From assembly GCA_012646185.1 (NCBI GenBank), contig GCA_012646185.1_4706.1: a DNA stretch of 64,000 nt. The stretch is one strand, 5' to 3'. Source of the stretch: a phage. A program made the translations under genes and the position numbers. The notes under the pieces were generated by a model, which was given only the letters and a program-made list of their open reading frames with translations, was not told the origin of the DNA and searched no databases. Positions 20,035 through 37,977 of this stretch are shown piece after piece (position 1 is the stretch's first letter; each line of letters begins with the position of its first letter).

Positions 20035-20049
20035 GTTCGATTCCTCGTA

Positions 20050-21013: not shown

Positions 21014-21050
21014 TCTAAGCTCCTCAATCGTTCTACAACGAACTTTTAAT

Positions 21051-21073: not shown

Positions 21074-21091
21074 TTGGGTTAGGTTATTGCG

Positions 21092-21367: not shown

Positions 21368-21407
21368 GATTTCTGTTGTATTTTCCTTTTCGCTTGTTGG
21401 TGTTGGA

Positions 21408-22486: not shown

Positions 22487-22568
22487 TTAAAAAGTTCCTC
22501 TGTTTTTCACGTTAATTAAACAACGTATTGATTTCTATTTGACGCAATACGAACATTGTACGTATGCA

Positions 22569-22593
22569 TCACTAAGGTAATATAGTCGTGAAA
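22569..22593 (-). promoter_or_regulatory. conserved 25-nt motif copy 2 (plus strand TCACTAAGGTAATATAGTCGTGAAA)
   Basis: ~83 nt upstream (minus orientation) of the 21704..22486 start. Confidence 0.5.
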
Positions 22594-23286
22594 GGATTTG
22601 TGTTACAGAAAGGGTTTTGTTGTGTTTTAAGAAGGGATGGATTTAGAAGAGGTGTTTCATGGAAGGTAAACGAGGATAGGTATTTTGATTTAAGTAAGTA
22701 AGATGTTATCTGTATTCGTTAAAAGTGTATTGTTTATCTTAGGTTATGTCTTATTGTTTAATCGTTTAATATTTTTATCTAAGTAGGTTTAACTCTATCT
22801 TGTTTGTATATTTAAATTAAATCAATAAGCTTATCTTCAAAACAATGGATAACATGTGTTTACTACCTTAACGGTAACACATGTCATCTGTGCATTACAC
22901 TCCGTTATCACTTCGTTACATGCTTATAAGTTGGATAACTCAAAAAAACATTTGTGATACTCTTCTTCACGTTGTTCATCAGAGTATCTCGTCTATACTC
23001 ATTGCATTCGTATACGACATAACCGTTATACGCTAACGCTACGCTTATAGCTTGATAACTCTAAGGATAAAAACATAAACTCGCTTCGCTCGTTTAGTTT
23101 TTCTTTTTCTTAGAGTTATCCTGTTGCTCGTCTCTAAAGGACTTCGCTCCTCCCCCGTCCCCCGAAGGGGCCGGAGTCGTGGAAATTTTACTTTCCAAAT
23201 ACATTTACAACATCTGTAAACTTTTACTCCAGGTACTTAATCTTATCATTAGAAATTATAAAGAGAAGAATAAACACAAACATAAA

Positions 23287-23318
23287 CCTTCCTCCAACCC
23301 AACAGGGAAGGAGGAAGG
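23287..23318. terminator. conserved CT/GA hairpin (minus-strand reading CCTTCCTCCTTCCC-TGTT-GGGTTGGAGGAAGG)
   Basis: Directly downstream of the 23335..24228 stop. Confidence 0.6.
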
Positions 23319-23334
23319 GAGAGCTTGATTTTAA

Positions 23335-24228
23335 TTAATCGGCGGTGTTATAACCGAATACTGCTTTACCGTAGGTGTGAGTACCGTTAGCTAACGACAG
23401 CACCAGCACATGGTTGTACGTAGCGTTAACGCCCTTGTCAGTAGACTCGGTGGTAGCACCGTTATAGACAAAGGTAGCCGTTTGCAGATTGGCTTTCAGC
23501 TCGGTGATGATCTCATCACTGACACCTGTCTGCTCTTTGATCAGCGTAGTCAGGTTACCTGCCAGGCTTGCATCGATATTTACTTCGTTGCCAGTAATAG
23601 CTTGTAAACCTGCGGTGTAAGTACTGAAGTCTAACGGATAGGTTAACAGACGTGCTGACGTTTTGGTACCATCGCCATCATCAACGTAGGTTAAGTTACC
23701 CAGGTTGGTAACCTTGATGATGTTAGCCAGATCCAGCGTGGTGTTATAAACTTTAACTTGAACAGAGCCATACCACGCCAACGAATCTTCTTTGGCTTCC
23801 AGGGTGATCGTCTGGATACCATGCTGGTCGAAGGTAACCGGCGTAGCTAACGTTTCGGCTTTGATGTCTTTATCTTTATCCAGGAACTTCTCACCGGTCG
23901 GCGTGATCATACCGTAGCGTTGAGCTACAAGGTCAACCACATCACCGATGGTGGTGTCAGCAGTAACGTTAACACGTACAGCGATTTTCTGGAACCACTT
24001 AGCCAGATCCAGACGATGGTAGGTAACATCGCGGTTATTGAAGTAAGGTGTACCATCACCAGGGCTAAGCGTTAAAGTTGCTTCTGGAGCAGAAGCGCTT
24101 TTGGATTTAAGAACGTATTTAAGATCACTGTATTGGAAGCTGGCACCAGTGTCGGCGTTGAGCTGATTGATCTCATCAACGATAAGTTGCCAAGGTGTTT
24201 TTAAAGTAAGCGATACTTGAGTTGCCAT
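23335..24228 (-). CDS. virion-type protein, paralog-family member (297 aa)
   Basis: ATG with GAGGT SD; shares Y-x-R-N, YxRLDL and LAWxGSV motifs with the 35294, 37116 and 37978 products; strongly host-optimised codon usage. Confidence 0.6.
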   Translation of the reverse strand: MATQVSLTLKTPWQLIVDEINQLNADTGASFQYSDLKYVLKSKSASAPEATLTLSPGDGTPYFNNRDVTYHRLDLAKWFQKIAVRVNVTADTTIGDVVDLVAQRYGMITPTGEKFLDKDKDIKAETLATPVTFDQHGIQTITLEAKEDSLAWYGSVQVKVYNTTLDLANIIKVTNLGNLTYVDDGDGTKTSARLLTYPLDFSTYTAGLQAITGNEVNIDASLAGNLTTLIKEQTGVSDEIITELKANLQTATFVYNGATTESTDKGVNATYNHVLVLSLANGTHTYGKAVFGYNTAD

Positions 24229-24369
24229 TTTCTACCTCTATGGTTGTTACATCACTCTCAAAAGATGTAACTGTTTACAGAAATTAATATATTTTATATT
24301 AACGTAAATAATATGGAGAACGACTCCGAATCTCCTTTTCGACCATCAAAAATCAGAGGACACATTATC

Positions 24370-24912
24370 ATGGCCTTAGACTTTAACAAAGCAGCGAAAT
24401 CCCTTCTGCTTGATCTTATCAACACCAAAGCAACCCGCCCACTGACTGAAGAAGAACTGCAGTTCGGTACTCCGGGAGCATCTTCCGAACATGAAAAGAA
24501 CACCGTTATTCAGCTGGATGCTGCAGTTGGTGCAGAAAACCTGCAGGGTAGTCAGCAGTTCTACTACGATCGTCTGGCTCTGTCCGAAGTTTTCGCTGAA
24601 GTAACCGGCGATGTTACTTTCGAACTGCCGCACGGTACCGACAGCATCCAGGCTTCTGAACTGGTAAGCAAGCTGGTCACCAAATTCGGCCTGGCTTCCC
24701 TGACCGGTGAAATCAAAGAAGAAACCTTCCAGCTGTCTGCAGGTACTGTTGCTCAGGTAACTCTGAACGCGATCGAGAACGGTCTGGTATATACCGGCAC
24801 TCTGCAGGTTGCCCTGACCTATGCAGCAGCACCGAAAGACCAACTGGCAACCGTTCTGGCGGATAACGTAGCTGATGGCTTCGTGAAACCGACCGTTAGC
24901 GTTGTTGGCTAA
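24370..24912 (+). CDS. abundant small protein (180 aa)
   Basis: ATG at 24370 with GAGGA SD (ATG at 24313 lacks one); very strong codon bias (ctg/ggt/cgt/aac) suggests high expression. Confidence 0.6.
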   Translation: MALDFNKAAKSLLLDLINTKATRPLTEEELQFGTPGASSEHEKNTVIQLDAAVGAENLQGSQQFYYDRLALSEVFAEVTGDVTFELPHGTDSIQASELVSKLVTKFGLASLTGEIKEETFQLSAGTVAQVTLNAIENGLVYTGTLQVALTYAAAPKDQLATVLADNVADGFVKPTVSVVG

Positions 24913-25111
24913 TAAGCACATAGAGCAATAGTATGGGTTTTGTACAGCTCGGCTATTGCTCTTCTACAATTTGGTTGTAACAATCTGCGTGGTTGCACGC
25001 TTATCTTTCTCATTGAGCGCTTCGTATGAAGCGTGGTGTTGAAAGGGTTGTGGATCTCCTCAAGCGGCCAGGGACCCAGACCAACCTGAATAAACACGAA
25101 CACCTGTTAAG

Positions 25112-25143
25112 CCCCTCCTCATCCGTTATTGGGTGAGGAGGGG
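25112..25143. terminator. CT/GA hairpin variant (CCCCTCCTCA...TGAGGAGGGG)
   Basis: 10-bp perfect stem ~200 nt downstream of the 24370..24912 stop, between convergent genes. Confidence 0.55.
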
Positions 25144-25206
25144 TCTTATACGTCTTTATGCGTTCCGTTCGTTCTGGAGCGTTTTAGGACGGTTTACGGC
25201 AGGGTT

Positions 25207-25842
25207 TTATTCAACACTGAAACCGTTCAAACGAATAGCTTCATAACGCTTACGTTCACGTCGTTTACGCGCCTGCCAGCCGTAAATGAACTTCTCGTCT
25301 TTCTCACGACGTTCAGCTAATTCGATGTAATAGGTGCTCTGCATGTCCAGCATCGCGTCGATGAGATAATCCTTACCGGTTGCACCACGCTTAGAGATGT
25401 AAGCATCAAGAGCTGCCAGTGATTTGGGGCCCATTGCACCATCAGCATCAATATCTTTCCAGTAAGTTTGACGGTTATTCATGACGTTCAGATAACGCTG
25501 GAGGTTCTTAACCGCAACCGTTTTACCTGCATTGATACCCAGGTCAAAGAGACGGTCAGCTAAAAACACAGAACGTTTCATGACTTCGTCAAGTTTCATC
25601 TTATCCCAGAAGTGGGTCTTGTAGATAAAGAACGCCATTTCCGTGGTAAGGTTACGCATGTTACCGTCCCAGCCGAATTTCGTTTTCAGCGTGGTTTTGT
25701 ATTGATTGGCAAGCGCTTGCGTCACGCCGTGGTTCGTGATTCCGCCCGAGTCATCTGGATCGTCGACATAACCTGCCTCGATGCTGGTCTTGTCGCGAAT
25801 GATGAATTCGCAGGTGAAATCTTTTTCAGTAATCTTAGCCAT
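25207..25842 (-). CDS. endolysin, GH108-type muramidase with C-terminal peptidoglycan-binding region (211 aa)
   Basis: N-terminal EAGYVDDPDDSGGITNHGVT motif typical of GH108 lysozymes; GAGGAG SD. Confidence 0.8.
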   Translation of the reverse strand: MAKITEKDFTCEFIIRDKTSIEAGYVDDPDDSGGITNHGVTQALANQYKTTLKTKFGWDGNMRNLTTEMAFFIYKTHFWDKMKLDEVMKRSVFLADRLFDLGINAGKTVAVKNLQRYLNVMNNRQTYWKDIDADGAMGPKSLAALDAYISKRGATGKDYLIDAMLDMQSTYYIELAERREKDEKFIYGWQARKRRERKRYEAIRLNGFSVE

Positions 25843-25944
25843 TAGAACTCCTCGTTGGAATAACGATTTAGAGGAACAGGAAGGGTCTAGAACGCGATAA
25901 ACGATTTAATCCAAGCAAACCCCAGACTAAACTTTTCGAAGCGT

Positions 25945-25958
25945 TAGAACGCGTTCTA
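25945..25958. promoter_or_regulatory. 14-bp perfect palindrome TAGAACGCGTTCTA (operator candidate) with a TCTAGAACGCG half-site copy at ~25886
   Basis: Read directly; lies in the 126-bp gap upstream of the endolysin start. Confidence 0.4.
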
Positions 25959-25968
25959 GAGTGCAATA

Positions 25969-28017
25969 TCAAATACCCTTGGTTCCTTTCACGTGATGTG
26001 CGATTTCTTCAACCATTGCACGCAGAGCACGAAGCTGTTGGTCGTGTTCGTACCAACCACCTAACAGAACCCCGCTATACACCATGGTGTCAAGACTTAA
26101 CAGTCCTTTATCTGATACGTTGATCATTTCAGGGAACTGTTCTTGAACACGCTGTGCGATAACACCGATCTTCTCGACATCAGGATCGTAGTTGTGACGG
26201 AAACGGGCAAGCCCGCTGCGCGCCATTTCACGTAAACGTTCACTGAGAGATTCCGGATGATCTTTCAGATAACGGATGTCGTGTTTACTACGCTCATCCG
26301 AGCGAATGTAAGCGTTAGGAACATCGATATTGCTGTTGAAGTACAGCGCACTACCACCGCCTGCAGAGTTCCCCCAATAGAAGCGTGTGATCTCACCGCC
26401 GCCATTTTCCGTGATGATAACATGTTTACCTAAACGCGTACCACCATTACCATCAACGAAGACCAGTTTGTTTCCGCTGTAAGAACCCCAGAACAAGCGT
26501 GTATCGATGATGTGCGTCGCAGCGAGACGGGCGTTACGTGGTGTAGAATACACGGTGTTCACATCTTGCTGTGCATGCGCATCGGAAGCGATACCGTAGT
26601 TCTGTACGTTACCCAATCCTACCTGCGCTTTTGTAACAGCATGTGGGTTGTCTCGACGGTTAGCGTGAGCGTTAACCAGATCACCCGCTAATTTCTGAAT
26701 TGCCCAGTTGGTAGACTGTGGCGTCATGTAACGGTTCGTTGCAGAACCACCTTGCGCTTCAGCTTGGTTAGCGGTTGGATAGTTCTCAACACTTCCTAAC
26801 CCTACTTGTGCTTTAGACACTTGGTGTGGGTTATTCTTGTCAGCGATGTGTGCATTAAGCGGAACTAACGCAAAGGTCTCAATGGACGCTTTGGTTGTGT
26901 TCGGTGCCATTAATCGGTTAGCTGCAACACCGGCACGCGCTTCTTCTTCAGACGCCATTGGGTAGTCTTGCACATTCCCTAACCCAACCTGTGCTTTGGT
27001 CACCCTGTGTGGGTTGTTGTAATCGGCTTTATGCGCATTAAGTGGAATCAATGCGAACTGTTCGATCGCGGCAACGGTACGTAGCGGTGTCATGAAACGG
27101 TTGTTCGCTGTTCCGGCTTTCGCCTCATCATCCGAAGCGGTCGGGAAGTTATCAACGTTCCCAAGGTTAACCTGTGCTTTGGTGACGCTATGCGGGTTAT
27201 CCCGACGGTTAGCATGCGCGTCGACTAGATCGCCCGCCAGTTTAGCAATCGCCCATCCAACCGTTTGTGCGGTCATGTATCGGTCAGGTGCAGTACCGGC
27301 TTCTGCCTCCGCCTTGTTGGCGGTAGGATAGTTCTGTACGTTACCTAGTCCGACTTGGGCTTTTGTTACTTCGTGCGGGTTATCGGTACGGTTAGCATGC
27401 GCGTAATGCAGATCGGTCAGATCTTTATCCGCTGCTTGCATGTCTTTGCGTAGCTGATCGATTGCCGCCCAGAGACGGTTATCGGATGCGGCGTCACCGA
27501 TAAGTATTGCGGCTTTCAGTGAATAGATCGCTAAGCAAAGATGTTCGGTACCGTAGATAGCACTAACGTGGTGGATGTGTGGTTCAGGCGGATAGAGTTC
27601 CGGTTTGTTCTTGATGTCATCCCAGTTGATCGGACGATCGTCAAGTTTGAGTTCTTCGATAGCCTGATATAACGCGTCAATAAGACTTACGTAAACACCA
27701 CCGATGATACGATAGTCGTTAACTAATGTACCCTCGATATCATCGTTGATAATGGCGATGGCTGCACAGATTTCTTTACCCGCGTAAAGCGTTGCATCCT
27801 GATACAAGAAGATGGGTTTATAATCCACGCCTCGTACCAGTGTCTTACCGGTAAGCTTTTCAGTGATGACCAGACTTTCGGTGAAGAACGGTCCGCCATC
27901 GAGGGCGTAACATTTATTCTCGGTTCGTGGAACGGTATGCTCTTCACCAACGATGTGGTTGCTGGCGAGTGTACCGGTCCAGTCCTCGGGGTACTTCAGG
28001 GTAATTGGTGTCGACAT
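25969..28017 (-). CDS. tail fibre protein with phage fibre repeats and C-terminal S74-like intramolecular chaperone (682 aa)
   Basis: Five copies of NPHxVTKAQVGLGNVxNY repeat; C-terminal SDERSK motif resembling the autoproteolytic chaperone domain of endosialidase-type fibres. Confidence 0.85.
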   Translation of the reverse strand: MSTPITLKYPEDWTGTLASNHIVGEEHTVPRTENKCYALDGGPFFTESLVITEKLTGKTLVRGVDYKPIFLYQDATLYAGKEICAAIAIINDDIEGTLVNDYRIIGGVYVSLIDALYQAIEELKLDDRPINWDDIKNKPELYPPEPHIHHVSAIYGTEHLCLAIYSLKAAILIGDAASDNRLWAAIDQLRKDMQAADKDLTDLHYAHANRTDNPHEVTKAQVGLGNVQNYPTANKAEAEAGTAPDRYMTAQTVGWAIAKLAGDLVDAHANRRDNPHSVTKAQVNLGNVDNFPTASDDEAKAGTANNRFMTPLRTVAAIEQFALIPLNAHKADYNNPHRVTKAQVGLGNVQDYPMASEEEARAGVAANRLMAPNTTKASIETFALVPLNAHIADKNNPHQVSKAQVGLGSVENYPTANQAEAQGGSATNRYMTPQSTNWAIQKLAGDLVNAHANRRDNPHAVTKAQVGLGNVQNYGIASDAHAQQDVNTVYSTPRNARLAATHIIDTRLFWGSYSGNKLVFVDGNGGTRLGKHVIITENGGGEITRFYWGNSAGGGSALYFNSNIDVPNAYIRSDERSKHDIRYLKDHPESLSERLREMARSGLARFRHNYDPDVEKIGVIAQRVQEQFPEMINVSDKGLLSLDTMVYSGVLLGGWYEHDQQLRALRAMVEEIAHHVKGTKGI
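26520..27420. repeat. five tandem ~183-bp coding repeats (61-aa fibre repeat)
   Basis: GTGGGTT/GCGGGTT landmarks recur at ~183-bp spacing. Confidence 0.7.
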
Positions 28018-28030
28018 AACCTGGAGGTCC

Positions 28031-30634
28031 TTATAACGTGACTGTACCTAATTTGGTTGTCTTATTGAGATTAATGACAGAGATCTGGGTATCGCTGGTC
28101 GTGATGGTGCCAATATTAACGCGCTGTCCTTTATCATCTTCTTGCTTGTAGATGGTTAACTCCAGTTCTAACTGGTCGCCATTAGGAACAACGGAAACGT
28201 ACCATGTTTTATTACCTGGTGAACTATTATAGTCTTTTAGGTTATAATGACCTTTAGGTAAGGTCATGACCTTACCGGCAAACAAGCAAGTGATGTCTTC
28301 GTTGATGTAGATATCGTAACCGGAAGCAGCAACGACCGTAGAAACCATGTAACGGCTTTTAACAGCGAGAGCTTTATATTCCGCAACGGAATTACCGACA
28401 GCACTAAAGACCTGACCACCATTACCCATCACCGTAGAGACTGCGGTATCAACATAACCGATTCCCCACACTGGATGCACGTTCCAGCGCCAGCCGCTTG
28501 TCTGTAGGTAAGCATACATACCTTCAAATGCGATGGTTGTCCAGTTCCCATCGTTTTGTCGCCCAGCTCGGAACTGGTAGGTGTTCTGGTTCCCTGCAGC
28601 CTGCCGGGAATACGGAACATGTCCCGCAACAAGCCACCCATCACTCACCTTCTTGTAAGCTAATGCACCCCAGGCAGCATACTGACTACCGATAGTTGTT
28701 GTATCGGCTTCCTCGACATAACCCAGCAGTTTGGTTACACCCGTCACCGTAATAGCACCTTTACGTGCGGATACGGTAACTTCCGCAGCGATTCGTCCAT
28801 GTACGCGCGTGCTGTTATTACAGCCAGCAACAAACAGAATACAGGGTGCGTTTGTACCATCTGGAGGTACGGCTAACGCATGCTGCCACTGACTTACCCC
28901 TGATAACTTAGATCCTGTATATGCGTTCCACACGAGCTGTCCGCCTGCTTGCAGGTTGGCTGCGGTTATGCTGACGGCTTCACCGGAAGGTGCGAGTTTG
29001 GTGGCGTCATATCCGATATTACCGGATAAGTTTGAATCGGTTAAATAAGACCCGCTAACTACCGTATTGTCGTCACTTAAATGTACGGTTAGGAAAGGTC
29101 GCGACAACTGACCTGCGCTAACCACCACGTTGTTGGAAGGTGGAAAACCGTAAACGTCTATACCCTCACCTCGATAACGATAGCTAAGGTTCCAATCGTA
29201 GGTCACCAAACGGGCTTCGAAATTACCTTGCCCGCCAGCCGTACGCGAGTTAACGAAAACCTTGTTTTTAGCAAAGAAACCCAGGTAACCATGGGACGCA
29301 AGTGCACCGACGATACGATCGTCAACGCTTTTCCAGTTTGAGTCGTACTGTATTCCACCAGTAGGACCGAGTTTGGCAAGTTCGTCAAACACGTTTCCAG
29401 AGAAACCTCTGATAGTGTACGATCGTGCGTAGGGGGCGGATAAGTTGTCGTTTTGAATCACAGCGACTTGACCACGTTCATCGATTTCAATATTTCCCGT
29501 ACTGTTACCCGAACCCCACTGCCAGAAACCGTCATTATACCCGCTTGTCCCCGCCGTCGTGTTGGAAGGTCCTACCCAGTCTATTCCGCTATCGGTTGAC
29601 ACGTACGTGGATTGTCCAGCACCTGGGTTCATGCTGTAACTGTTGTTGGTGGTTTCAAAATCCAGATAGAACTGATGTACCCCGTTCTTTTGCTGATTTT
29701 TGCGGTTGTTTGTCCACCATGACGAAGCAATCAGAATACGTGCTTTCGTGCCTTTGGTTGCTGCATGCAGACGAATCTGAGCACGCCAGACGATTTGACC
29801 GATCCCGTCAGAAGGGAAATCATTCGTAGTTATGCGGTTGCAGACAATCATCTCGGCACTGTTGCTTATCGCCGTTCCTTCTATCGTTCTACCGCTAATA
29901 TTCGTAAGCTGCGTAGCCGCTACGCTGCCACCGCTGGGACCGATGGAAGATTTAGTTACGGTATAAACATTTAAGTAGAGTTTATAACTGTTAGTGCCAG
30001 CAATAGCGATGTAGATTTTACCGTTAATTTCCCAACAGCAGATATGCGGTGACGTATCAACAAAGTTGGCAAGACTACCATCGAGATACATGGCGACGTG
30101 TTTGGATGCATCAAACGTTCCGTCTGTCAATGCGATAAACATTTTAGGGCTGCTACCGTCTTCAAAAGCAGCTTGACCTAACATGATACCGTTCTGGTGA
30201 CAGTATATCACCGTAGGAATACGATCGAGCGTTGCGGGCTCATAGCGACGGCTGGTTGGAATAACTTCAGTGATCTGTCCGTTTTGATTTGTTTTACAGA
30301 TAACGTAGTAAACCCCTTTCTTTACGCTGTTCGTTGCCGAACGCAGTAACACGATAGTACCGTCGGATTCACGACATACGCCGTAACGACGATAGTCGAC
30401 GGTTAAGGCGATAGCACCATCAGCGGAGCCTTCGATTGCCAGAGGAAAATAACTTTGGTCCCCAACCTGTTCGATATCGGTTACGCCAATATCGATGTAT
30501 TTTTCCATCTCAGTGTTGAACTCAGCGGTACTGTAGGCACCGAGATCGCTCGCGTTTAGTCCCGTTGGATTGTTGCGACTGGCGATACGCGTAGTAACGC
30601 TATTCACCAGCTCGCTGAACTTTTTCATTGCCAT
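28031..30634 (-). CDS. tail fibre / receptor-binding protein (867 aa)
   Basis: N-terminal NNPTGLNASDLGA motif shared with neighbouring fibre genes; Gly/Ser/Thr/Asn-rich beta-type composition; position in fibre cluster. Confidence 0.6.
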   Translation of the reverse strand: MAMKKFSELVNSVTTRIASRNNPTGLNASDLGAYSTAEFNTEMEKYIDIGVTDIEQVGDQSYFPLAIEGSADGAIALTVDYRRYGVCRESDGTIVLLRSATNSVKKGVYYVICKTNQNGQITEVIPTSRRYEPATLDRIPTVIYCHQNGIMLGQAAFEDGSSPKMFIALTDGTFDASKHVAMYLDGSLANFVDTSPHICCWEINGKIYIAIAGTNSYKLYLNVYTVTKSSIGPSGGSVAATQLTNISGRTIEGTAISNSAEMIVCNRITTNDFPSDGIGQIVWRAQIRLHAATKGTKARILIASSWWTNNRKNQQKNGVHQFYLDFETTNNSYSMNPGAGQSTYVSTDSGIDWVGPSNTTAGTSGYNDGFWQWGSGNSTGNIEIDERGQVAVIQNDNLSAPYARSYTIRGFSGNVFDELAKLGPTGGIQYDSNWKSVDDRIVGALASHGYLGFFAKNKVFVNSRTAGGQGNFEARLVTYDWNLSYRYRGEGIDVYGFPPSNNVVVSAGQLSRPFLTVHLSDDNTVVSGSYLTDSNLSGNIGYDATKLAPSGEAVSITAANLQAGGQLVWNAYTGSKLSGVSQWQHALAVPPDGTNAPCILFVAGCNNSTRVHGRIAAEVTVSARKGAITVTGVTKLLGYVEEADTTTIGSQYAAWGALAYKKVSDGWLVAGHVPYSRQAAGNQNTYQFRAGRQNDGNWTTIAFEGMYAYLQTSGWRWNVHPVWGIGYVDTAVSTVMGNGGQVFSAVGNSVAEYKALAVKSRYMVSTVVAASGYDIYINEDITCLFAGKVMTLPKGHYNLKDYNSSPGNKTWYVSVVPNGDQLELELTIYKQEDDKGQRVNIGTITTSDTQISVINLNKTTKLGTVTL

Positions 30635-30646
30635 TATTCACCTCGA

Positions 30647-31132
30647 TTAAATAGGCGAGTCAGGAAGCTGTCCGTCGTCGATTTCAACGGTGCCGATCTT
30701 ACGTGTTGCCGCGAGGTGCACGGTACCCTGAATTTTGTTCCATGTCCCGATACGCATCACGTTTCTGTAATTACTGTTGCTATCTGTTAACGTGTAGGCG
30801 AAACCGCTATCGGTGACAGCAAGATAAACCCAGCCAACAGATTCACTTACACCAGACACATCCAACGTCGTTGCAGGAACAACACCCTCTTTGGTATTGT
30901 ATTCGGCAACACCTTCCGACAAACTTATTCTTCCGTTGTTGTAAGAACCAGACGGTACGATACGATCGCGACTGAAAAAAAGAAAGGGAAGGTAACGCTG
31001 GGTAACAAGCGGTGCAAGTTTAGGAGCCACTTCGGTCTTAACGTAGACATTTGTTTGTGCTGGCGTTACCTCGTGAGGGTTCTTTTGGGTGAGATACGCT
31101 CCCCATTCAGAAAGCAATGTTGATAGCTTCAT
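30647..31132 (-). CDS. tail-fibre-associated protein (161 aa)
   Basis: N-terminal KNPHEVTPAQ fibre-repeat-like motif; within fibre cluster. Confidence 0.5.
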   Translation of the reverse strand: MKLSTLLSEWGAYLTQKNPHEVTPAQTNVYVKTEVAPKLAPLVTQRYLPFLFFSRDRIVPSGSYNNGRISLSEGVAEYNTKEGVVPATTLDVSGVSESVGWVYLAVTDSGFAYTLTDSNSNYRNVMRIGTWNKIQGTVHLAATRKIGTVEIDDGQLPDSPI

Positions 31133-31136
31133 GCGG

Positions 31137-31646
31137 TTACCCCATGTAACGTTTTTGGCCGAGGATGAAGACTTTGTTAAATACCACCGAAGTGATTCCT
31201 GTTGCGTTACAGCTCACCTGCCCGACGCGAATTGCTGTTGACGTATCGACCCCAGCACTACTCTGCCAGATCCAATCGATCGATCCGTCTTTCTGACGAA
31301 TGAAAAGATAACCGGTTTTGTTCGCCCAGTCGGAAGTAAGTTTTTTGATGTCTAGCGTTCCTTTCGCCAGAATATAGTCGGTACCGGCGATCATGACGGG
31401 TATTTCAGGATACGAGATTACCGTACCGCTGGCGGTAACGTTGCTGATGCGATCACTACGAATATCGGTACAGTCACCGAAATACGCTACGGGGAGTATC
31501 CCCTTAGGGAGCTTTTTGCCGATTCTCGTATCGATCGTGTTTTTATCGGGTGCGTCGATTTGCGCTGCAGTGACTTGGTTAGGGTTATCCTTCCTTGCGT
31601 ACCATGCCGTCATGCGAGCACCCAATTCACTCATTTTTGTGCCCAT
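31137..31646 (-). CDS. tail-fibre-associated protein (169 aa)
   Basis: N-terminal KDNPNQVTAAQ motif; first ATG is residue 3 of the track ORF (track start is GTG). Confidence 0.5.
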   Translation of the reverse strand: MGTKMSELGARMTAWYARKDNPNQVTAAQIDAPDKNTIDTRIGKKLPKGILPVAYFGDCTDIRSDRISNVTASGTVISYPEIPVMIAGTDYILAKGTLDIKKLTSDWANKTGYLFIRQKDGSIDWIWQSSAGVDTSTAIRVGQVSCNATGITSVVFNKVFILGQKRYMG

Positions 31647-31655
31647 TTTCACATC

Positions 31656-31697
31656 CTATCGAAAAATAAAAAGAAGGAAAGGTGGGTAGAACCCACC
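31656..31697 (-). terminator. hairpin GGTGGGT-AGA-ACCCACC followed by T-rich tract on minus strand
   Basis: Immediately downstream of the 31704..33857 stop. Confidence 0.6.
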
Positions 31698-31703
31698 CAT
31701 CCG

Positions 31704-33857
31704 TTATAACGTTTCGAAGTCGGTTGCTTTGATAACCGCGTTGAAGTTGGCAAGGAATTCCTTAAGCAATGCTTGGAAGACATCACGAAACGCTGTGTTC
31801 GTCTGCAAGCTGGTTAAATAATCGTTCTTAAGGTAATCGCTCAGCTTACCGATCTTCTGCATCTTCTCGCCGTCTTGGTTCTCTCCAGGTTCTTGGCTGT
31901 TGATGTTAACCCATTTGATCCCTTCGAGATCGCCATCGGCAAGGAAGTTAGCGGGCGTCTCATCGTCGTTCAGGATTTTAATCGTGTCGCTGGATTCAAT
32001 ACCACCGTAAGCTTCCAGAAGCTGGTTGACTGTTAGCTTATTAGTGTTGATTGAACCATTGACACCATCGATACCGATGCCTGCACCTGTGATGGATGTC
32101 GCCGAAAGATCGATTGGTCCGGTTAACTTACCCCCGTTGATCGGTAACGCACCAACTTGCTCTGCGGTGTGTGTATGGTCAGCTAACGCCGCAAACGCCG
32201 TGATAGACTTATATGTCGAATACGGCGTCATATACGCTGATTGGTTGGTGTTGTCAGCCGCTTCAGTATCGGTAGCGACATTAAAGTTCTGCACGTTGCT
32301 GAGACCGACCTGCACCTTCGTTACTTCATGCGGGTTGTTCTTATTGACAACGTGTGCTGCAAAACCGTCACCGGCTAAAGCAGTGATTGCCGCTTTTGTC
32401 GCAGCCGGTGTCATATAGCGGTTGGTTGCTTCACCCGTTTGCGCCTCTTCGTCGGAAGCAACAGGATAGTTCTCAACGCTCCCCAACCCAACCTGAGATT
32501 TTGTTACTTGGTGTGGGTTTTCGGTATTCGCAATATGACTACTGAACCCTTGACCCGCCAGTTGCTCGATTGCGTAACGAACAAGTATTGGCGTCATGTA
32601 CTTGTTGTTAACCTGACCATCGATAGCTTCTTGGGTGGTGGCAACCCCGAAGTTTTGCACGCTCCCCAACCCAACTTGCGCTTTCGTAACAGCGTGAGGG
32701 TTATTGGTGTTACCGATGTGATCGGTAACCGTTGGGGTGATTAATCCTGCGATAGCGGCTGCCGTGGTCGCAGGGGTCATGTATTTATCGTTAGCAACAC
32801 CCGCAGCAGCTTCTACGTTAGATGCTACACCGTAGTTCAATACATTTCCTAACCCAACTTGAGCCTTGGTTACCCCGTGGGGGTTGTTCCTGTCTCCGGT
32901 ATGGGTTGTCAACGTAGCGTTGACATGATCGATACGCGTACTTAAGCCGTCGGTGATTGCTTTGATTGCGGCTCGTACACCCGCTGGTGTTGTGTACAGA
33001 TTGGTGGCCGTACCGGTAATGGTTGCATTACTATCGGCTGTACCGTAGTTCTCAACGTTTCCGAGTCCCACCTGGGCTTTCGTTACCTTGTGTGGGTTGT
33101 TATAGTTGCTGATGTGTGCAGCAGCACTATCACCACTCAGGTTAGCGATCATCTTACGCGTCATCGCCAACGTCATGTACAGATTTTCACCGATGGTTTC
33201 CAGATCGCTCTCGGTCGCCGTTGTGAAGTTCTGAACATTCCCCAAACCAACTTGTGCCTTGGTTACGCCATGTGGGTTATCGCGACGATTCTCGTGCTGC
33301 AGCAATGCGGTCATTGCTTTATTGAACCCTTCTTCAAGCGGTTCTTTCAATGATTCGATTGCAGCCACCACATCGTCCCACGTCATTGTGTCGGTTTCGA
33401 CATTATGTTGGTGGTTGATTGGCGGGAATACGGAAGGAACGTCAGCAACCTTTTCCCAGAACGTAACGCGGGGATCGTAAAGGTTGTTGGCTAAAACGTT
33501 AAGAATTTGTTGTTGATCAAGTGTAAACTCACCCCCCAGTGAATAGTAGTTCAGTTGCAACTGTCCACTGAATGCGGTGTCCAACAGCATGATGGAACCG
33601 TATAATTCCAGGCCGGTCAGCGCAGCCATGGCACGGAAGGGGTGAGTGCATAAAAAGTCAACGCCTTCTTCCAGATACGCGTTTGTTTCAGGGTTGTAGA
33701 TCTTTAACCCATTACGAAAATAGGGTGCGTATTTAGGAACGAGAAAGTTAAATCCGGTCCCCGTGGAAGGACGGACAGTGACGAGTTCTTCTGGAACCCA
33801 TGCGCCATCCAAATTCCCCTGCGGGTTATACGGAAGGCGTTTAATTTCATCTGTCAT
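31704..33857 (-). CDS. tail fibre protein with phage fibre repeats (717 aa)
   Basis: At least six copies of NPHxVTKAQVGLGNVxNF repeat. Confidence 0.85.
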   Translation of the reverse strand: MTDEIKRLPYNPQGNLDGAWVPEELVTVRPSTGTGFNFLVPKYAPYFRNGLKIYNPETNAYLEEGVDFLCTHPFRAMAALTGLELYGSIMLLDTAFSGQLQLNYYSLGGEFTLDQQQILNVLANNLYDPRVTFWEKVADVPSVFPPINHQHNVETDTMTWDDVVAAIESLKEPLEEGFNKAMTALLQHENRRDNPHGVTKAQVGLGNVQNFTTATESDLETIGENLYMTLAMTRKMIANLSGDSAAAHISNYNNPHKVTKAQVGLGNVENYGTADSNATITGTATNLYTTPAGVRAAIKAITDGLSTRIDHVNATLTTHTGDRNNPHGVTKAQVGLGNVLNYGVASNVEAAAGVANDKYMTPATTAAAIAGLITPTVTDHIGNTNNPHAVTKAQVGLGSVQNFGVATTQEAIDGQVNNKYMTPILVRYAIEQLAGQGFSSHIANTENPHQVTKSQVGLGSVENYPVASDEEAQTGEATNRYMTPAATKAAITALAGDGFAAHVVNKNNPHEVTKVQVGLSNVQNFNVATDTEAADNTNQSAYMTPYSTYKSITAFAALADHTHTAEQVGALPINGGKLTGPIDLSATSITGAGIGIDGVNGSINTNKLTVNQLLEAYGGIESSDTIKILNDDETPANFLADGDLEGIKWVNINSQEPGENQDGEKMQKIGKLSDYLKNDYLTSLQTNTAFRDVFQALLKEFLANFNAVIKATDFETL
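32180..33305. repeat. about six tandem ~183-bp coding repeats (fibre repeat)
   Basis: Periodic recurrence of the repeat at the DNA level, similar to 26520..27420. Confidence 0.7.
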
Positions 33858-33961
33858 GATGCGCCCTTTACAAGTTGTTAGTAAGTATGGGATACCCTGG
33901 GGTATCCTGTGTTAACAGCGGTAAAATATTACTGTAACTATAAAATAAGGGGGCCTCTCCC

Positions 33962-35242
33962 ATGTATACATTGGTAAAAACTTACGGGTTACCCGTAGGT
34001 TCTGGCACGGCCTGGACAGCGCTTGAGGCGGGTGAAAGTGTCCTGAGTACGTTGTTCTCAACGTATCAAAAACTCAAGATCCAGGTCCATGAAAGCTATG
34101 CTGACCAGCAACAAGTTATTGATCTGTACGCGTTCCAATCCGAGCTTCAAAACAGTAGAGATACGCTTAATGCGTGGCTGAAGGCGAAATCGGATGCGCA
34201 TACCAACCTTCGAGGACAGCCTGGTGAACTGTCGATTAAAACCCACAAGCTTTATTGTCATGACGTTGTTACTGTAGGCTTTCTCCCTAAAGTCGGTAAT
34301 AGCGGTTATCATCCGAGCAACGCGATCCCTGAGTCGGAACGCACCGATATCCTGTTGACGAAAGCGAATACGAATTACGAAAATATCGGCAAACACTGCC
34401 TGTTCACCGTAGGTGGTTATGTTCATCCTCACGTCTACGGTAAAGACGTTGGTGTCTATATCCAGGGCGGGTTCAAGACGGCACAGCGTAGCCAAGAAAA
34501 CGATATCGGCATGATTGATTTTAGCCGTATCGGGAGTTTGGAAATCCATGCTATCACAGAAGAGATGATTGCTGATTCCACGAAGCTCTTGCCGTATAAG
34601 GACGAGATGTACTTGCGGTTACCGCGCAAGGTCGCCGAAGATGAAACCGTCGCGCTGGTGTTCGGGGGATATTTACATCTTCTTGACGATTGTTACACGA
34701 TCGTTAGTGACACGACAGCGAAAATAAACTGCATTAACATGTTTCTTTATGAAAGATACTTCCGTTCCCGCAAATACCTTGATCTAACATCTCTTGGTAT
34801 TCTGTTGAACGAAGAAGACCCACAGTCTGACATTGTTGCCAATCGTTTATTGTCGGATAAAGCATTAAAAGCGTGGGTGACGCATCCTTGCAGTTTCTGG
34901 GTGTATATCAAAGCAACATCGATTCAGGTTACGCAAGAACCCTTACCACGAAGTGGTGTACCAGGACAATATTTCTTAGGTAAGAAACCGGAAGGATTGA
35001 TTCGAGCTGATCTCGGCGAGTTACCGGCTTACGTGCAGACCTATGAAAAACCGTTATGGGTACTTCACTCGCGCTGGGGACTTCGTAAGAATATGTTGTT
35101 TGAAAATACGTTGTACAAACATACCCGCGTTAAGCGACTTAACGATACGCCTTATCTTCACCAGGTTTGGTTGGAAACGCATGCAACGTTGCAGACAGTA
35201 CACAAGCTCGAATTGATCGATTCCAGTCAGAAAAACAAATAA
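33962..35242 (+). CDS. hypothetical protein (426 aa)
   Basis: ATG with AAGGGGG SD; followed by conserved hairpin. Confidence 0.6.
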   Translation: MYTLVKTYGLPVGSGTAWTALEAGESVLSTLFSTYQKLKIQVHESYADQQQVIDLYAFQSELQNSRDTLNAWLKAKSDAHTNLRGQPGELSIKTHKLYCHDVVTVGFLPKVGNSGYHPSNAIPESERTDILLTKANTNYENIGKHCLFTVGGYVHPHVYGKDVGVYIQGGFKTAQRSQENDIGMIDFSRIGSLEIHAITEEMIADSTKLLPYKDEMYLRLPRKVAEDETVALVFGGYLHLLDDCYTIVSDTTAKINCINMFLYERYFRSRKYLDLTSLGILLNEEDPQSDIVANRLLSDKALKAWVTHPCSFWVYIKATSIQVTQEPLPRSGVPGQYFLGKKPEGLIRADLGELPAYVQTYEKPLWVLHSRWGLRKNMLFENTLYKHTRVKRLNDTPYLHQVWLETHATLQTVHKLELIDSSQKNK

Positions 35243-35252
35243 CCAAACATAA

Positions 35253-35284
35253 CCCTCCTCCTTCCCTTACGGGTTGGAGGAGGG
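35253..35284. terminator. conserved CT/GA hairpin (CCCTCCTCCTTCCC-TTAC-GGGTTGGAGGAGGG)
   Basis: Archetype of the hairpin family; between convergent gene ends. Confidence 0.6.
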
Positions 35285-35293
35285 CATATGCTG

Positions 35294-36199
35294 TTATGCT
35301 ACATATAACGTTAGATAACCATCGATGAGCGTATTCATCACACTGAGTTGGAGTACGACAGCTTTACTAACATCCGTACGTACACCGAACGGTAGTGTTT
35401 TGAATTGCTCTGGATCGGCTATTACTCTCGCGTTCTGCAAGTTGAGTGGTCCAGGCATTGACGACAATACCCAGCGATCGTTGACCATAAGGCCGTCGAT
35501 CTCTTCAGAGAGACCCAATTGCAGTGTGTTCATTTCTGCGATTAGTGCCTCCGATTGCGTATCGCCTGAGGTTAATGTGTACCCATCGGTAAGTGATGCC
35601 AGAACACCAGCAGATACGAACCAGTTGTACGAAACAATAGCGCCTGGGAGTTTACTGCTATCTCGATCGATGATATAATTCAACCCAGCCAACATATTGT
35701 TGCGAACGAGGTTGTTGAGGTCGTTATGTCCTGAGGTTAACTCAACAAGTAACTGACCAACCCATACTTGGTTACCAGGTTTAGGTGTTATCACAACCTG
35801 TATCGGTGACTTGGACTTATCCAGATCCGCGTCGACAATCTCGGTTTTGTTGAGAAGGATACCGTACGTCGATGCTAAGACAGGTAGGATCTCAGAGACC
35901 TTGGTTAATGCATCTAAGGTTTCGATCTCGATGGGCCAGTGGTGCTGTCCGCCAGGCCAAGTACCCAGTTTACCAAGATCGATGCGGTTATAATAGATGT
36001 CGACAGAGTTCACCAGCCCTGAACCCGGTTGGGGATGCACGGTTAACTTGCTGTTACGCTTGTACCCTGTGCTTTCAGAAGCCTCACCGATAACCAGTTT
36101 ATCCAGCGTTACGCCTCGAGCATCGAAATCGCTATGCTTTCGAATCAGCCGAAAGAGGATTTCTTTCGATTCTAACCCCAGGATTTCACTGTACTCCAT
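35294..36199 (-). CDS. virion-type protein, paralog-family member (301 aa)
   Basis: AAGGGGTG SD; YKRN...YYNRIDLG...STYGILL motifs shared with paralogs. Confidence 0.6.
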   Translation of the reverse strand: MEYSEILGLESKEILFRLIRKHSDFDARGVTLDKLVIGEASESTGYKRNSKLTVHPQPGSGLVNSVDIYYNRIDLGKLGTWPGGQHHWPIEIETLDALTKVSEILPVLASTYGILLNKTEIVDADLDKSKSPIQVVITPKPGNQVWVGQLLVELTSGHNDLNNLVRNNMLAGLNYIIDRDSSKLPGAIVSYNWFVSAGVLASLTDGYTLTSGDTQSEALIAEMNTLQLGLSEEIDGLMVNDRWVLSSMPGPLNLQNARVIADPEQFKTLPFGVRTDVSKAVVLQLSVMNTLIDGYLTLYVA

Positions 36200-36214
36200 T
36201 TAACACCCCTTAGG

Positions 36215-37099
36215 TTACGGTAGGATTTCTGCGCCCGTCGGGCCTGCCTTACGAGCTTCCAACGCACCAAGGTCGTATTTCAGCGTCAGCGTATCGTTGG
36301 TGGTATAAAGGTTGTGGTAAGTCGAAATCAGATCGGTAACCTGCGCGCCGACGATTTCGTTCATGTCGAAGGCTGAACCTTGACCATCATCAGCACGAAC
36401 GATTTTATCGCCAGCAGAGACCATCCCAATTTCAGAAATAACCGCGTACTCTTCACCACCTTCGGTGAGTTTAGCTACATTGAGATATTCGTTAATATCC
36501 CACGGCGTCCAAACCAAAGAGACTTTACAGCTGTAGTCGTAGTACTCTCCGGTTGCTACCAGAATTCCGGTTGTTGGGATATCCGGTCGGGCAGGGTTGA
36601 GGTTCGCGTCGGTTGGGTGCCATTCGATGGTCTGAGCGACGCCGTCGACGTATTTGGTATAACGCATGGAGCGGACAACGTTATCGAAATCGATCCGGCG
36701 ACCGTAATAACAGATATACTTTTTACCGCTTTCCAGTGTCTCAATACGACGTAACCCAAATTTAGCGCGTTCGTCTGTGGTCAAATCGTTACCAACTTCA
36801 CGCATTACGAAAGGCTTGATTTTCCACGGTGAAAGATCGCTTGCTTCGTGAGCGATCGGCATCGAGGAAGGGATACCGTTAGCGTTGCGGATGAATTCAT
36901 GACCTTGGTTGCCGATACAGAAGTAACGTACAGCAGGATTACCCTCGGGGTAAACCTTTGATTGAATCTGAAGTTTTTCATTCAAGGTGCTGTGTTCTTC
37001 CCATGCATGAGGAAGACCGAGCGTAAGGTTAGTTTGTACTTGACCGCCGATAATCGTACGGACGATACGATCGGTAGCACGGATTTGTGTAGAAGCCAT
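36215..37099 (-). CDS. hypothetical structural-module protein (294 aa)
   Basis: ATG with AGGAAAAG SD; only weak similarity to the flanking paralogs. Confidence 0.6.
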   Translation of the reverse strand: MASTQIRATDRIVRTIIGGQVQTNLTLGLPHAWEEHSTLNEKLQIQSKVYPEGNPAVRYFCIGNQGHEFIRNANGIPSSMPIAHEASDLSPWKIKPFVMREVGNDLTTDERAKFGLRRIETLESGKKYICYYGRRIDFDNVVRSMRYTKYVDGVAQTIEWHPTDANLNPARPDIPTTGILVATGEYYDYSCKVSLVWTPWDINEYLNVAKLTEGGEEYAVISEIGMVSAGDKIVRADDGQGSAFDMNEIVGAQVTDLISTYHNLYTTNDTLTLKYDLGALEARKAGPTGAEILP

Positions 37100-37115
37100 G
37101 TCTTTTCCTATTTAA

Positions 37116-37967
37116 TCAGTTATATTGCATCAACAGGATACCGCCGTAGTTCGTGCAGTAATCTTGGCTAAGCGTAACGATAACAGCGTTAGCGAACGCA
37201 GGGTTAACCGGATAACCCTGTGCGATAAGTTCTGTTGTTTTACCGGTTGCAAGCACGGTGGCTCCGTAAAGGTTGTTTTCGTCTTCACGGCCGTTATAAA
37301 CCCATGGGGTTGGCGCAACGTTGTTGAATAAGCTAACCATTGCGCTTAAATTACCGCCAACTTTTAACCCGGCGAGATCGGAACGGATAGCCGTACAGTC
37401 TATAGCGTAACTGTAGACCAGTGCCTGGATACGATTTGCGGTGTAGTACGGGAAATTGAGGCCGGTCATCACCGTGGACTTCATCATCCCCGCAACATCG
37501 TGGGCACTATCGAGGAGATAGAACGTAACACTTCCCGTCCAAGCCAATCCGGTTGTTTTCAACTCTACGGTGTGAGGGAACGGATATTCATCACCTCGTA
37601 CAATCGGAGAATCGACGCAGCTATCCTGATCGATAACGATTCCGTACGTTGATTGAATCAGAGGGATAAGATCGTGCGTCGTTTTAACCCCAGCATCGAT
37701 AGCAAGCTTCGGTTCCATTCCCAAGAAGAAGTCTTGGATAGGGATACGATCGTACCACACGTAGCTGCTTTCACGGTATTGTGCTGGTGTTACTGTTGCC
37801 GAAGGTGATACCTTAGCGCGTGTGTTCCGTTTATACGCGTGGTTTCCGTTTTCAGCAACATCCGTGATATCAAGTGCATCGAAGTTAAAGTCGAAGTCAG
37901 GATTGGCTGCCTGAATAAGTTCAGCGACCAGTACTTTAGGACTTTTGTTTAACAATTTCTGACTCAT
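37116..37967 (-). CDS. virion-type protein, paralog-family member (283 aa)
   Basis: AAGGA SD; YKRN...WYDRIPI...STYGIVI...LAWTGSV motifs. Confidence 0.6.
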   Translation of the reverse strand: MSQKLLNKSPKVLVAELIQAANPDFDFNFDALDITDVAENGNHAYKRNTRAKVSPSATVTPAQYRESSYVWYDRIPIQDFFLGMEPKLAIDAGVKTTHDLIPLIQSTYGIVIDQDSCVDSPIVRGDEYPFPHTVELKTTGLAWTGSVTFYLLDSAHDVAGMMKSTVMTGLNFPYYTANRIQALVYSYAIDCTAIRSDLAGLKVGGNLSAMVSLFNNVAPTPWVYNGREDENNLYGATVLATGKTTELIAQGYPVNPAFANAVIVTLSQDYCTNYGGILLMQYN

Positions 37968-37977
37968 TGTTTATTCC

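Follow-up and report, generated by a model that had tools for sequence, protein, structure and literature searches.

Do the tandem repeats in the tail-fibre genes of a jumbo phage provide the means by which its fibres change, or does variation lie elsewhere in the same locus? The question is raised by positions 25,969 to 33,857 of a 64,000-nt stretch of phage DNA (contig GCA_012646185.1_4706.1 of GenBank assembly GCA_012646185.1; we refer to the whole stretch as the window). A first-pass annotation of this region had described two fibre genes built from repeats of 61 amino acids (aa), one of them ending in a putative self-cleaving chaperone, and had proposed that recombination between the repeats would change fibre length or swap distal domains. 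Our preferred reading, to which as a whole we give a probability of roughly 0.75, is that the locus is a fibre module like that of Escherichia phage Goslar, with docking of the type seen in phage phiKZ, ancient and stable fibre shafts, a 682-aa fibre processed by a Peptidase_S74 (S74) domain, and three intervening genes, gp26, gp27 and gp28, that act as exchangeable cassettes.

The region contains five consecutive open reading frames (ORFs) on the minus strand, separated by spacers of 4–51 nt (Table 1), and the next gene, the gp30 orthologue, is transcribed divergently from them. Over its whole length, and without indels, the region has 94.6% DNA identity to Escherichia phage vB_EcoM_Goslar (NC_048170), a 237-kb chimallivirus (family Chimalliviridae), and the five ORFs correspond to its genes gp29, gp28, gp27, gp26 and gp25, names that we also use for the window orthologues. 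By these comparisons the phage is a Goslar-like chimallivirus–a nucleus-forming jumbo phage closely related to the E. coli phage Goslar. Chimalliviruses transcribe their late genes with RNA polymerases of their own. Protein identity to the Goslar counterparts ranges from 82% to 99.6% and is 99.6% for gp25 and 98.9% for gp29; gp26 and gp27 differ from Goslar by 7% and 18%, as against 0.4–1.1% in the two fibre proteins. ORF calling returned both fibre genes as first annotated, on the minus strand and encoding 682 and 717 aa. The start of gp28 is ambiguous (31646–31652, minus strand): the longest ORF begins at a GTG and gives 171 aa, and the Goslar annotation begins at an ATG two codons downstream and gives 169 aa.

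The description of gp25 and gp29 as tail-fibre genes is borne out by their kinship to phiKZ genes and by the Goslar virion proteome. In BLASTP searches gp29 matches phiKZ gp131 (E = 2e-42), and gp25 matches gp135 (E = 2e-31) and gp131 (E = 1e-29); gp30 matches gp130 (E = 7e-26) and gp32 matches the spoke protein gp139 (E = 5e-50). The gene order, and the divergent orientation from the gp130 homologue, are the same in phiKZ gp130–gp135 and here. Because of this homology and synteny, we identify gp25 and gp29 as gp131-type peripheral baseplate fibres. Residues 9–155 of the gp29 orthologue match PHIKZ131 in a tblastn search (E = 1e-20), and a total of 287 phage records, nearly all of them from jumbo phages, have matches to the N-terminal 155 residues of the 717-aa protein. 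In phiKZ, gp131-type N-terminal domains (N-domains) are placed at 12 fibre-attachment sites beneath gp130, each with six N-domains and a six-helix bundle (PMC13250141). By analogy, the N-domains of gp25 and gp29 would dock to the peripheral baseplate beneath the gp130 homologue. All five orthologues were detected by liquid chromatography–tandem mass spectrometry (LC-MS/MS) in virions of Goslar itself, rather than of the window phage, and gp25 and gp29 carry the label 'Tail fiber' there (Table S4 of a 2026 preprint).

The two paralogous fibres share one layout. The gp131-type N-domain comes first, with a KPxxFPPxxHxH motif and then a long helix after it; a shaft of six or five repeat units comes next, and the distal ends are different. 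In full, the motif between the N-domain and the first helix reads W-x-x-(I/V)-x-x-KP-x-x-(F/Y)PP-x-x-H-x-H in both fibres; in the 717-aa fibre its KPxxFPPxxHxH part is near aa 144 (about 33400–33440, minus strand). Three of its residues–W132, P139 and H147 in the numbering of the 682-aa protein, the first alignment row–are invariant in 69 homologues, and the HxH may be a metal-binding site as in other fibres. The motif also has a weak match to 'tail collar fibers gp4' in PDB 9d93.

Age and stability of the shaft repeats

The repeat counts first reported, five and about six, hold by both motif and profile. The motif NPHxV(T/S)xxQ occurs five times in the 682-aa fibre at a spacing of exactly 61 residues, and six times in the 717-aa fibre at spacings of 60, 71, 61, 61 and 61 residues, where unit 2 bears a 10-aa insertion. 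Elsewhere in the window it is found only once each near the N-termini of the gp27 and gp28 orthologues. When the 11 units are aligned, 11 columns are invariant and 6 are nearly so, and a hidden Markov model (HMM) made from these units recovers five and six domains at 89–107 bits apiece. We modelled gp25 with AlphaFold2 (AF2), as a monomer from a 69-sequence alignment, although the protein is probably trimeric. Each unit is predicted to comprise a ~20-residue helix, a loop with the conserved NPH...GLGNV sequence (NPHxVTKAQVGLGNVxN), a short helix, and a YMTP turn into the next long helix. Confidence, as the predicted local distance difference test (pLDDT), is >90 at aa 17–110 in the N-domain and 70–89 in the repeat array. 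In a trimer, the units would plausibly form coiled-coil segments alternating with knots.

The ~183-bp periodicity noticed at the DNA level is measurable. A repeat search with permissive seeds found DNA copies 183 nt apart, and self-identity at a lag of 183 nt is 0.57 and 0.44 in the fibre genes compared to a background of ~0.28 (z ~7 by autocorrelation), with no such signal in the neighbouring 867-aa gene, which served as a control. From the motif spacing and the lag-183 signal relative to this control, we conclude that the core observation is real, far beyond chance. The copies are not, however, the long near-identical DNA repeats that they had been taken for. Pairs of units are only 36–64% identical in nucleotide sequence (mean 51%), exact matches between different parts of the region reach at most 17 nt, and Tandem Repeats Finder detected no 183-nt array in a search of positions 20000–40000. 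Amino acids shared by two units are encoded by an identical codon in 42.8% of cases, compared to 41.1% expected from codon usage. Because codon identity is so close to chance, synonymous sites are saturated, and this test gave no trace of recent duplication or gene conversion among the units. The repeat copies are old and have been kept alike by selection on the protein, and since their DNA is saturated at synonymous sites the array is now stable.

We then compared nine Goslar-like genomes: the window, Goslar, two IMG/VR contigs and five metagenome contigs. All nine encode proteins of 717, 171, 161, 864/867 and 682 aa (one gp25 has 681 aa), with six and five repeats in the two fibres and with the SDxRxK motif discussed below. 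The first-pass annotation had asked for repeat number to be compared among relatives; there is no difference among these nine close relatives. In the wider family, it varies between 3 and 13 among the best 120 homologues, whose C-terminal parts are 23–597 residues long and whose distal domains differ. The two arrays thus lack both marks of a recombinogenic tandem array, namely long near-identical copies and copy-number differences among the nine genomes. The idea that recombination changes fibre length or swaps fibre ends therefore keeps some support as an evolutionary process, from the family-wide range of repeat numbers, the differing distal domains and one hybrid gene, but it finds no support as a tendency of the present DNA, with its diverged copies and fixed numbers. 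The stronger proposal, that the arrays are active recombination substrates and that unequal crossing-over within and between the genes often changes fibre length or distal domains, we regard as distinctly improbable. The variation among the 120 homologues and the hybrid, with its crossover inside the conserved motif, are what one could cite for it; it has to contend with the low DNA identity and short exact runs of the units, with synonymous saturation that leaves no sign of recent duplication or conversion, with identical repeat numbers and (apart from one 681-aa gp25) lengths in nine genomes, and with a hybrid that was not found a second time in four collections.

The hybrid is a database protein (P0047) encoded on a 1,437-nt contig, JAODFR010000112.1 (L003), of an E. 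coli draft assembly (GCA_025336745.1). Its sequence is that of gp25 as far as midway through repeat 3; from there it continues, in register, as gp29 from midway through repeat 6 and on through the distal domain. Nucleotides 1–745 of the contig match gp25 at 96.5% identity and nucleotides 691–1437 match the window gp29 at 86%; outside the junction zone, nucleotides 761–1437 are ~96% identical to the allele in another sequence, L006. In window coordinates, positions 27708–26964 are joined to 32339–31594, and the contig continues past the gp29 stop codon and through the gp29–gp28 spacer into gp28. The switch takes place within a few nucleotides, inside the GLGNVQD of the conserved motif. Because gp25 is downstream of gp29, a simple deletion would not suffice to make this gene; unequal exchange or conversion would be needed. 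Its origin may be a rare recombination event or an error of assembly. If real, it combines a shorter shaft with a swapped distal end, the kind of event that had been predicted, and it would represent rare recombination between diverged sequences at a conserved motif. We put the chance that no such phage gene exists, and that the contig is a chimera made during assembly or library preparation, somewhat short of even. It is a lone short contig in a fragmented draft assembly, and we found no second instance in IMG/VR (by exact 40-mer), complete E. coli genomes, GenBank phages or JGI/ENA metagenome contigs; against this, the two parts are joined in frame and in register with the repeats, the contig runs correctly into the gp29–gp28 spacer, a look-up reports it in two samples, and the closest available parental-type alleles (L006) share exact runs of just 11 nt at the junction. 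Short-read assemblers normally use k-mers longer than 11 nt, so a k-mer mis-join is no obvious explanation.

At the protein level, the 61-aa repeat is an ancient and widespread building block. It is present in 489 GenBank phage records, including phiKZ-like phages, Felixounavirus tail fibres, SPbeta-like Bacillus phages and Listeria phage B054, and it matches 15,018 of 1.84 billion representative proteins at E ≤ 0.001; single proteins of 2,400–3,000 aa have as many as 29 matched stretches. Many PHROG families match the repeat, and no model in Pfam or NCBIfam matches it, the N-domain, the gp29 C-terminus or gp26–28 (we disregarded an End_tail_spike match with an E-value of 0.24). Being very common yet lacking a curated model, the repeat would merit consideration as a new curated family. 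No structure in PDB was found to contain the repeat when its sequences were searched with the full proteins and with the repeat profile; a match to ribosomal protein L18e (E = 0.01) was judged to be due to chance. In Foldseek searches, the AF2 model of the fibre has local similarity, with low template modelling (TM) scores, to baseplate chains of Klebsiella phage KP1 (E = 1e-5), to T4 gp12 (E = 2e-5) and to T4 gp34 (E = 1e-2); for the T4 fibres, the extended form of the monomer model accounts for the very low TM-scores. The term-matched passages of the phiKZ atlas and the Goslar preprint, together with one Goslar supplementary section, make no mention of the repeat architecture or of the half-repeat adaptors described below, and a literature search for 'YomR' together with 'tail fiber' found nothing.

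The S74 domain of the 682-aa fibre

In endosialidases and in T5 pb1, the serine at the start of the S74 domain is the nucleophile that attacks the preceding peptide bond after the trimer has folded, and the lysine five residues further on is catalytic. The first-pass annotation had read the sequence SDERSK in gp25 as the sign of such a self-cleaving chaperone at the very end of the fibre. The assignment to S74 is supported at the sequence level; the position has to be corrected. Pfam family PF13884 matches aa 573–631 (E = 1.1e-5, with 26 bits against a gathering cut-off of 22), and a precomputed PF13884 annotation is also present on database protein P0148, which is identical to the window protein. 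SDERSK is at aa 573–578, so that it stands 110 residues before the C-terminus, and the S74 domain comprises the last 110 of the 682 residues of this gp131-type fibre protein. Ser573 and Lys578 make up the expected pair in an S-D-x-R-x-K arrangement. When aligned to the long-tail-fibre tip of phage S16 (gp37; PDB 6f45), SDERSK falls on SDRRIK and the IGVIAQRVQEQFPEMI segment (G-x-IAQ-x-V...FPE) is aligned too, and an SDxRxK motif is located ~100–110 residues from the C-terminus in eight of nine sampled PF13884-positive homologues, P0148 included. The gp29 distal end, of 159 aa, has no S74 domain. If the domain behaves like others of its family, it would aid trimer folding and then cut itself off at Ser573, with Lys578 acting as the base. 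Cleavage is predicted between R572 and S573 (codon 26299–26301), which would turn the full-length protein of 74.8 kDa into a mature protein of 572 residues (62.1 kDa) and release a 12.7-kDa fragment.

We examined the Goslar virion peptide list over its part for peptides beginning with A to about DM, in which two of the six C-domain peptides would fall; HNYDPDVEK, IGVIAQR, VQEQFPEMINVSDK and GLLSLDTMVYSGVLLGGWYEHDQQLR lie beyond this range. Overall coverage is about 59%. All four of the longer tryptic peptides from the mature part of gp25 are present in this part of the list, and AMVEEIAHHVK and DHPESLSER, with their missed-cleavage and oxidised forms, are absent from it. The peptide data are thus compatible with removal of the S74 domain, and no proof of it. 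Alternatively, the domain may be a remnant that does not cleave and is retained by the mature fibre in a structural role at the C-terminus. We consider this improbable: although the Pfam score is merely 4 bits over the cut-off, similarity to solved S74 domains is weak and limited to 6f45 (E = 0.013–0.043, and 0.043 for the S74 segment alone), and AF2 confidence in the region is low, the catalytic Ser and Lys are in place, the G-x-IAQ-x-V...FPE segment aligns, related fibres keep the SDxRxK motif, and both testable C-terminal peptides are missing from a list that has the mature-part peptides.

gp26, gp27 and gp28 as candidate distal cassettes

Two short proteins, encoded at 30647 (gp27) and 31137 (gp28), had been credited with a single N-terminal copy of a repeat-like motif. 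They do carry it: gp28 and gp27 rank third and fourth among 302 ORF segments of the window in a search with the repeat HMM (E-values in Table 1), and the next segment scores 4.5 bits. However, the match covers only positions 4–18 of 61, which is a half-repeat and not a full copy. The N-termini of gp27 and gp28 match each other (BLASTP E = 1.4e-5), and the pattern helix-NP(H/N/T)x(V/L)(T/N)xA(Q/D)... is common to those of gp26, gp27 and gp28, with NPxxVTxAQ...Y/K..E as the terminal half-repeat. In gp26 the N-terminal pattern is invariant in homologues down to 35% identity, and gp26 matches phiKZ gp132 with an E-value of 2.5e-4. The N-termini of gp27 and gp28 align best to the junction that follows the last repeat in other fibres (residues 546–587 of P0024, 661–694 of P0044, 646–674 of P0075 and 484–523 of P0119), where the sequence NPHxVTAAQVGAYxxxExDxxLxxK leads into the distal domain. 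In terms of alignment, then, gp26, gp27 and gp28 begin where the distal domain begins in single-chain fibres.

The largest of the three, gp26, has no Pfam family and matches only PHROGs of unknown function. Its AF2 model is all-beta over ~aa 84–760, with pLDDT >90 in many blocks, and in Foldseek it has a propeller fold, with tandem-propeller proteins among its matches. From this fold, gp26 would be the counterpart, as a separate polypeptide, of the C-terminal propeller of phiKZ gp131; gp25 and gp29 themselves have no C-terminal propeller (by the AF2 model of gp25 and by their sequences), so this gp131-specific feature is lacking on them. It is a probable receptor-binding or glycan-acting component. 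The C-terminal 86 aa of gp28 are homologous to the gp26 C-terminus (E = 2.8e-5 by hhalign to a gp26 profile; E = 1e-10 to phrog_3573), and outside the N-terminal motif gp27 has no significant relation to the gp26 profile by hhalign.

Variation among close relatives falls mainly on these genes, to which the first-pass annotation had given only a side remark. Across the nine genomes, protein identity to the window is 95–99.4% for gp25 and 92.5–98.5% for gp29, and it is 52–93% for gp26, 78–92% for gp27 and 78–97% for gp28. Relative to Goslar, the DNA of gp26 and gp27 has diverged by 8.2% and 19.8%, compared to 2.2–2.7% in gp25, gp28 and gp29, and gp27 is the most divergent gene of the module (82% protein identity to Goslar). 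Synonymous changes are raised as well, an indication of imported alleles rather than of selection alone. Among the 90%-identity clusters of a protein database, 17 are at 87–96% identity to gp26; gp25 has one close cluster and gp29 has three at a level of at least 87% (one of them a 594-aa fragment). In comparison with the sequences L001, L015 and L017, positions 28031–31132, spanning gp26 and gp27, stand out as a sharply bounded divergent island, which looks like a cassette replacement. Two metagenomic Goslar-like genomes have a gp26 allele that is only 52% identical to that of the window, with gp25 at 98.5–99.4%; alleles of this kind are those of OGZS01000006.1 and ERZ1026903 NODE-5.

We infer that gp26, gp27 and gp28 are detached distal receptor-binding cassettes, which would join the fibre complex through the N-terminal helix and half-repeat as a docking element, and that host range in this lineage would change by exchange of cassettes and not by repeat number. 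One specific form of this idea has gp25 and gp29 as constant shafts to which headless gp26–28 dock via helix and half-repeat, perhaps as a heterotrimer, with the half-repeat being portable. We offer it tentatively and think it rather doubtful. If it is true, receptor-binding modules could be exchanged without touching the shaft, and the 61-aa repeat would define a general system for building fibres and docking to them. A gp26–gp27–gp28 heterotrimer would also have a parallel in phiKZ, whose hetero-hexamer contains gp133, gp134 and gp135 in one copy each.

Protein abundances in Goslar virions bear on these proposals. In Table S4 of the 2026 preprint, label-free quantification (LFQ) area divided by mass is 9.3 for gp25 and 8.0 for gp29, in the range of proteins with 24–60 copies, and 1.37, 1.47 and 1.52 for gp26, gp27 and gp28, in the range of proteins with 6–12 copies. 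Since proteins of known copy number scatter ~30-fold in the same table, the ratio of ~6:6:1:1:1 is only indicative of gp25 and gp29 being about equimolar, and of gp26, gp27 and gp28 being equimolar at a lower level; we rejected the LFQ ratios as quantitative stoichiometry. A count of 36 + 36 fibre copies, as two trimers per site, would fit if the 72 N-domain positions of phiKZ hold here.

These abundances, at ~1/6 of the fibre proteins, are a poor fit to one tip per fibre, and they could point to gp26–28 not being fibre tips at all but peripheral-baseplate or assembly proteins, in which the half-repeat is an inert relic of the fission of an ancestral fibre gene. Gene fission is plausible given the architecture of phrog_3573, where a fibre N-terminal part is fused to a gp26-like body. 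But an inert relic sits poorly with the invariance of the gp26 N-terminal motif down to 35% identity, which argues for function, and with the retention of the element in all three proteins and in phiKZ gp132; moreover, high variability and a propeller fold suit surface-exposed receptor binders. We think this explanation unlikely, while allowing it an appreciable chance, and prefer to see gp26–28 as exchangeable cassettes of the fibre complex.

Besides the LFQ scatter, several points weigh against our preferred reading of the module. At the N-terminus of gp26 the motif has degenerated so far that the repeat HMM misses it, and besides its conservation only weak BLAST matches support it (E = 0.007–0.014, with 0.007 for gp28, and 2.5e-4 to phiKZ gp132); the N-terminus of the gp26 model is of low confidence. 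Three mature-part gp25 peptides of 7–8 residues are, like those of the C-terminal domain, absent from the A–DM part of the Goslar list. AF2 confidence is low for the gp25 tip as well as for the S74 region, and the models are monomers of probably trimeric proteins. In the Goslar cryo-EM preprint, the fibres and the peripheral baseplate could not be resolved; more generally, tail fibres are the least resolved part of the virion in nucleus-forming jumbo phages, being unmodelled in both the phiKZ atlas and the Goslar study. In a preprint on receptor prediction, Goslar appears merely as a strain source.

Flanking genes and comparison with known fibre systems

Table 1. Features of the fibre module and its gp130 homologue, in window coordinates.
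Feature	Position	Strand	Evidence
gp30 orthologue, 426 aa, phiKZ gp130 homologue	33962..35242	+	BLASTP to gp130 (E = 7e-26)
gp29 orthologue, fibre protein of 717 aa, phiKZ gp131-type	31704..33857	-	ORF; virion orthologue in Goslar
gp131-like N-domain of 717-aa fibre, aa 1-125	33483..33857	-	tblastn to PHIKZ131
Six tandem 61-aa NPH repeats of 717-aa fibre, aa 187-558	32184..33299	-	Motif spacing, repeat HMM, autocorrelation
gp28 orthologue, small virion protein of 171 aa	31137..31652	-	Repeat HMM, hhalign, phrog_3573, Goslar virions
gp28 N-terminal helix and terminal half-repeat (predicted)	31557-31601	-	Repeat HMM (E = 0.004)
gp27 orthologue, small virion protein of 161 aa	30647..31132	-	Repeat HMM, Goslar virions
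gp27 N-terminal half-repeat	31052-31087	-	Repeat HMM (E = 0.012)
gp26 orthologue, virion protein of 867 aa	28031..30634	-	
gp26 N-terminal helix and degenerate half-repeat (predicted)	30506-30577	-	
gp26 all-beta body, predicted beta-propeller(s)	about 28355-30385	-	AF2
gp25 orthologue, fibre protein of 682 aa	25969..28017	-	N-domain, HxH motif, five repeats, short tip, S74
gp131-like N-domain of 682-aa fibre	27643-28017	-	
HxH motif of 682-aa fibre	27571-27633	-	
Five tandem 61-aa NPH repeats of 682-aa fibre, aa 206-506	26500..27402	-	Motif spacing, repeat HMM, AF2, autocorrelation
Putative Peptidase_S74 intramolecular chaperone domain, aa 573-682 and stop codon	25969..26301	-	PF13884

Directly downstream of the module is a gene for a lysin with GH108 and PG_binding_3 domains (25207–25842, minus strand), which differs by 8% in DNA sequence from its Goslar counterpart. 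In the Goslar virion data this lysin, with an LFQ area/mass of 8.2, is about as abundant as gp25 and gp29, suggesting that it is associated with the virion and does not serve as an endolysin only. The module is flanked by paralogous 'virion structural protein' genes (phrog_1037 / phrog_2935) at 23335–24228, 24313–24912, 35294–36199, 37116–37967 and 37978–38913. The Goslar counterparts of two of them, gp22 and gp23, are named DUF7941 in the 2026 preprint and are proposed there to form a filament cloud; for the remaining three, the assignment comes only from PHROG paralogy. We also noticed Goslar-like proteins under Salmonella enterica or Escherichia coli assemblies (P0121, P0142, P0148 and P0047), in some cases in clusters of 300–400 members. 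Goslar-like phages may often travel with, or contaminate, enterobacterial isolates.

The locus is largely an ordinary, well-organised jumbo-phage fibre module whose orthologue is already annotated in Goslar, and none of our results overturns current understanding. The analysis adds a link to the architecture of phiKZ gp131–gp135, the finding that the repeats are ancient and now stable, partial support from published data for loss of the S74 domain, and the placing of variation among close relatives in three 'headless' cassette genes. It also yields a sequence-level parts list–the shaft proteins, the shaft length in repeats, the probably processed end, and the genes that vary–and it suggests that host-range engineering in Goslar-like phages should be aimed at gp26–gp28 and not at the repeat-bearing fibre genes.

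The nearest known system is Goslar itself, whose gp25–gp29 are orthologous to the window genes, with equal lengths and repeat numbers; a Peptidase_S74 note is already present on Goslar gp25 in GenBank. The phiKZ gp131–gp135 cluster has in common with the window the homologous N-domain, the genomic position, the 61-aa repeat and the terminal half-repeat, and both have short 'headless' repeat proteins: gp132 in phiKZ, of 110 aa and barely more than one repeat, and gp26–28 here. The two differ in the number of repeats per protein, which is 5 and 6 here but 1–2.3 in phiKZ (2.3 copies in gp131, and one full and one terminal half-copy each in gp133, gp134 and gp135), and in the number of N-domain proteins, which is two here and four in phiKZ. 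They also differ in the propeller, which is on the same chain as the N-domain in phiKZ gp131 but would be on a separate polypeptide, gp26, here. No S74 domain came up on the repeat-bearing proteins of the phiKZ cluster, though no explicit scan for it was made. With the S74 domains of K1F endosialidase, T5 pb1 and S16 gp37, the window domain shares its C-terminal place after the fibre tip and the S-D-x-R-x-K arrangement; it is a distant member by sequence, with a cleavage that is predicted, and it follows a shaft of alpha-helix/loop repeats via a tip of ~66 residues, instead of a large beta-helical spike. The shafts of T4 gp12 and gp34 are likewise made of tandem short units within a trimer (Foldseek matches to 5iv5_AI, 5nxh and 5lye at E = 2e-5 to 4e-2), but they have no sequence similarity to the repeat and differ from it in unit length, which is 61 aa here, and in the conserved motif.

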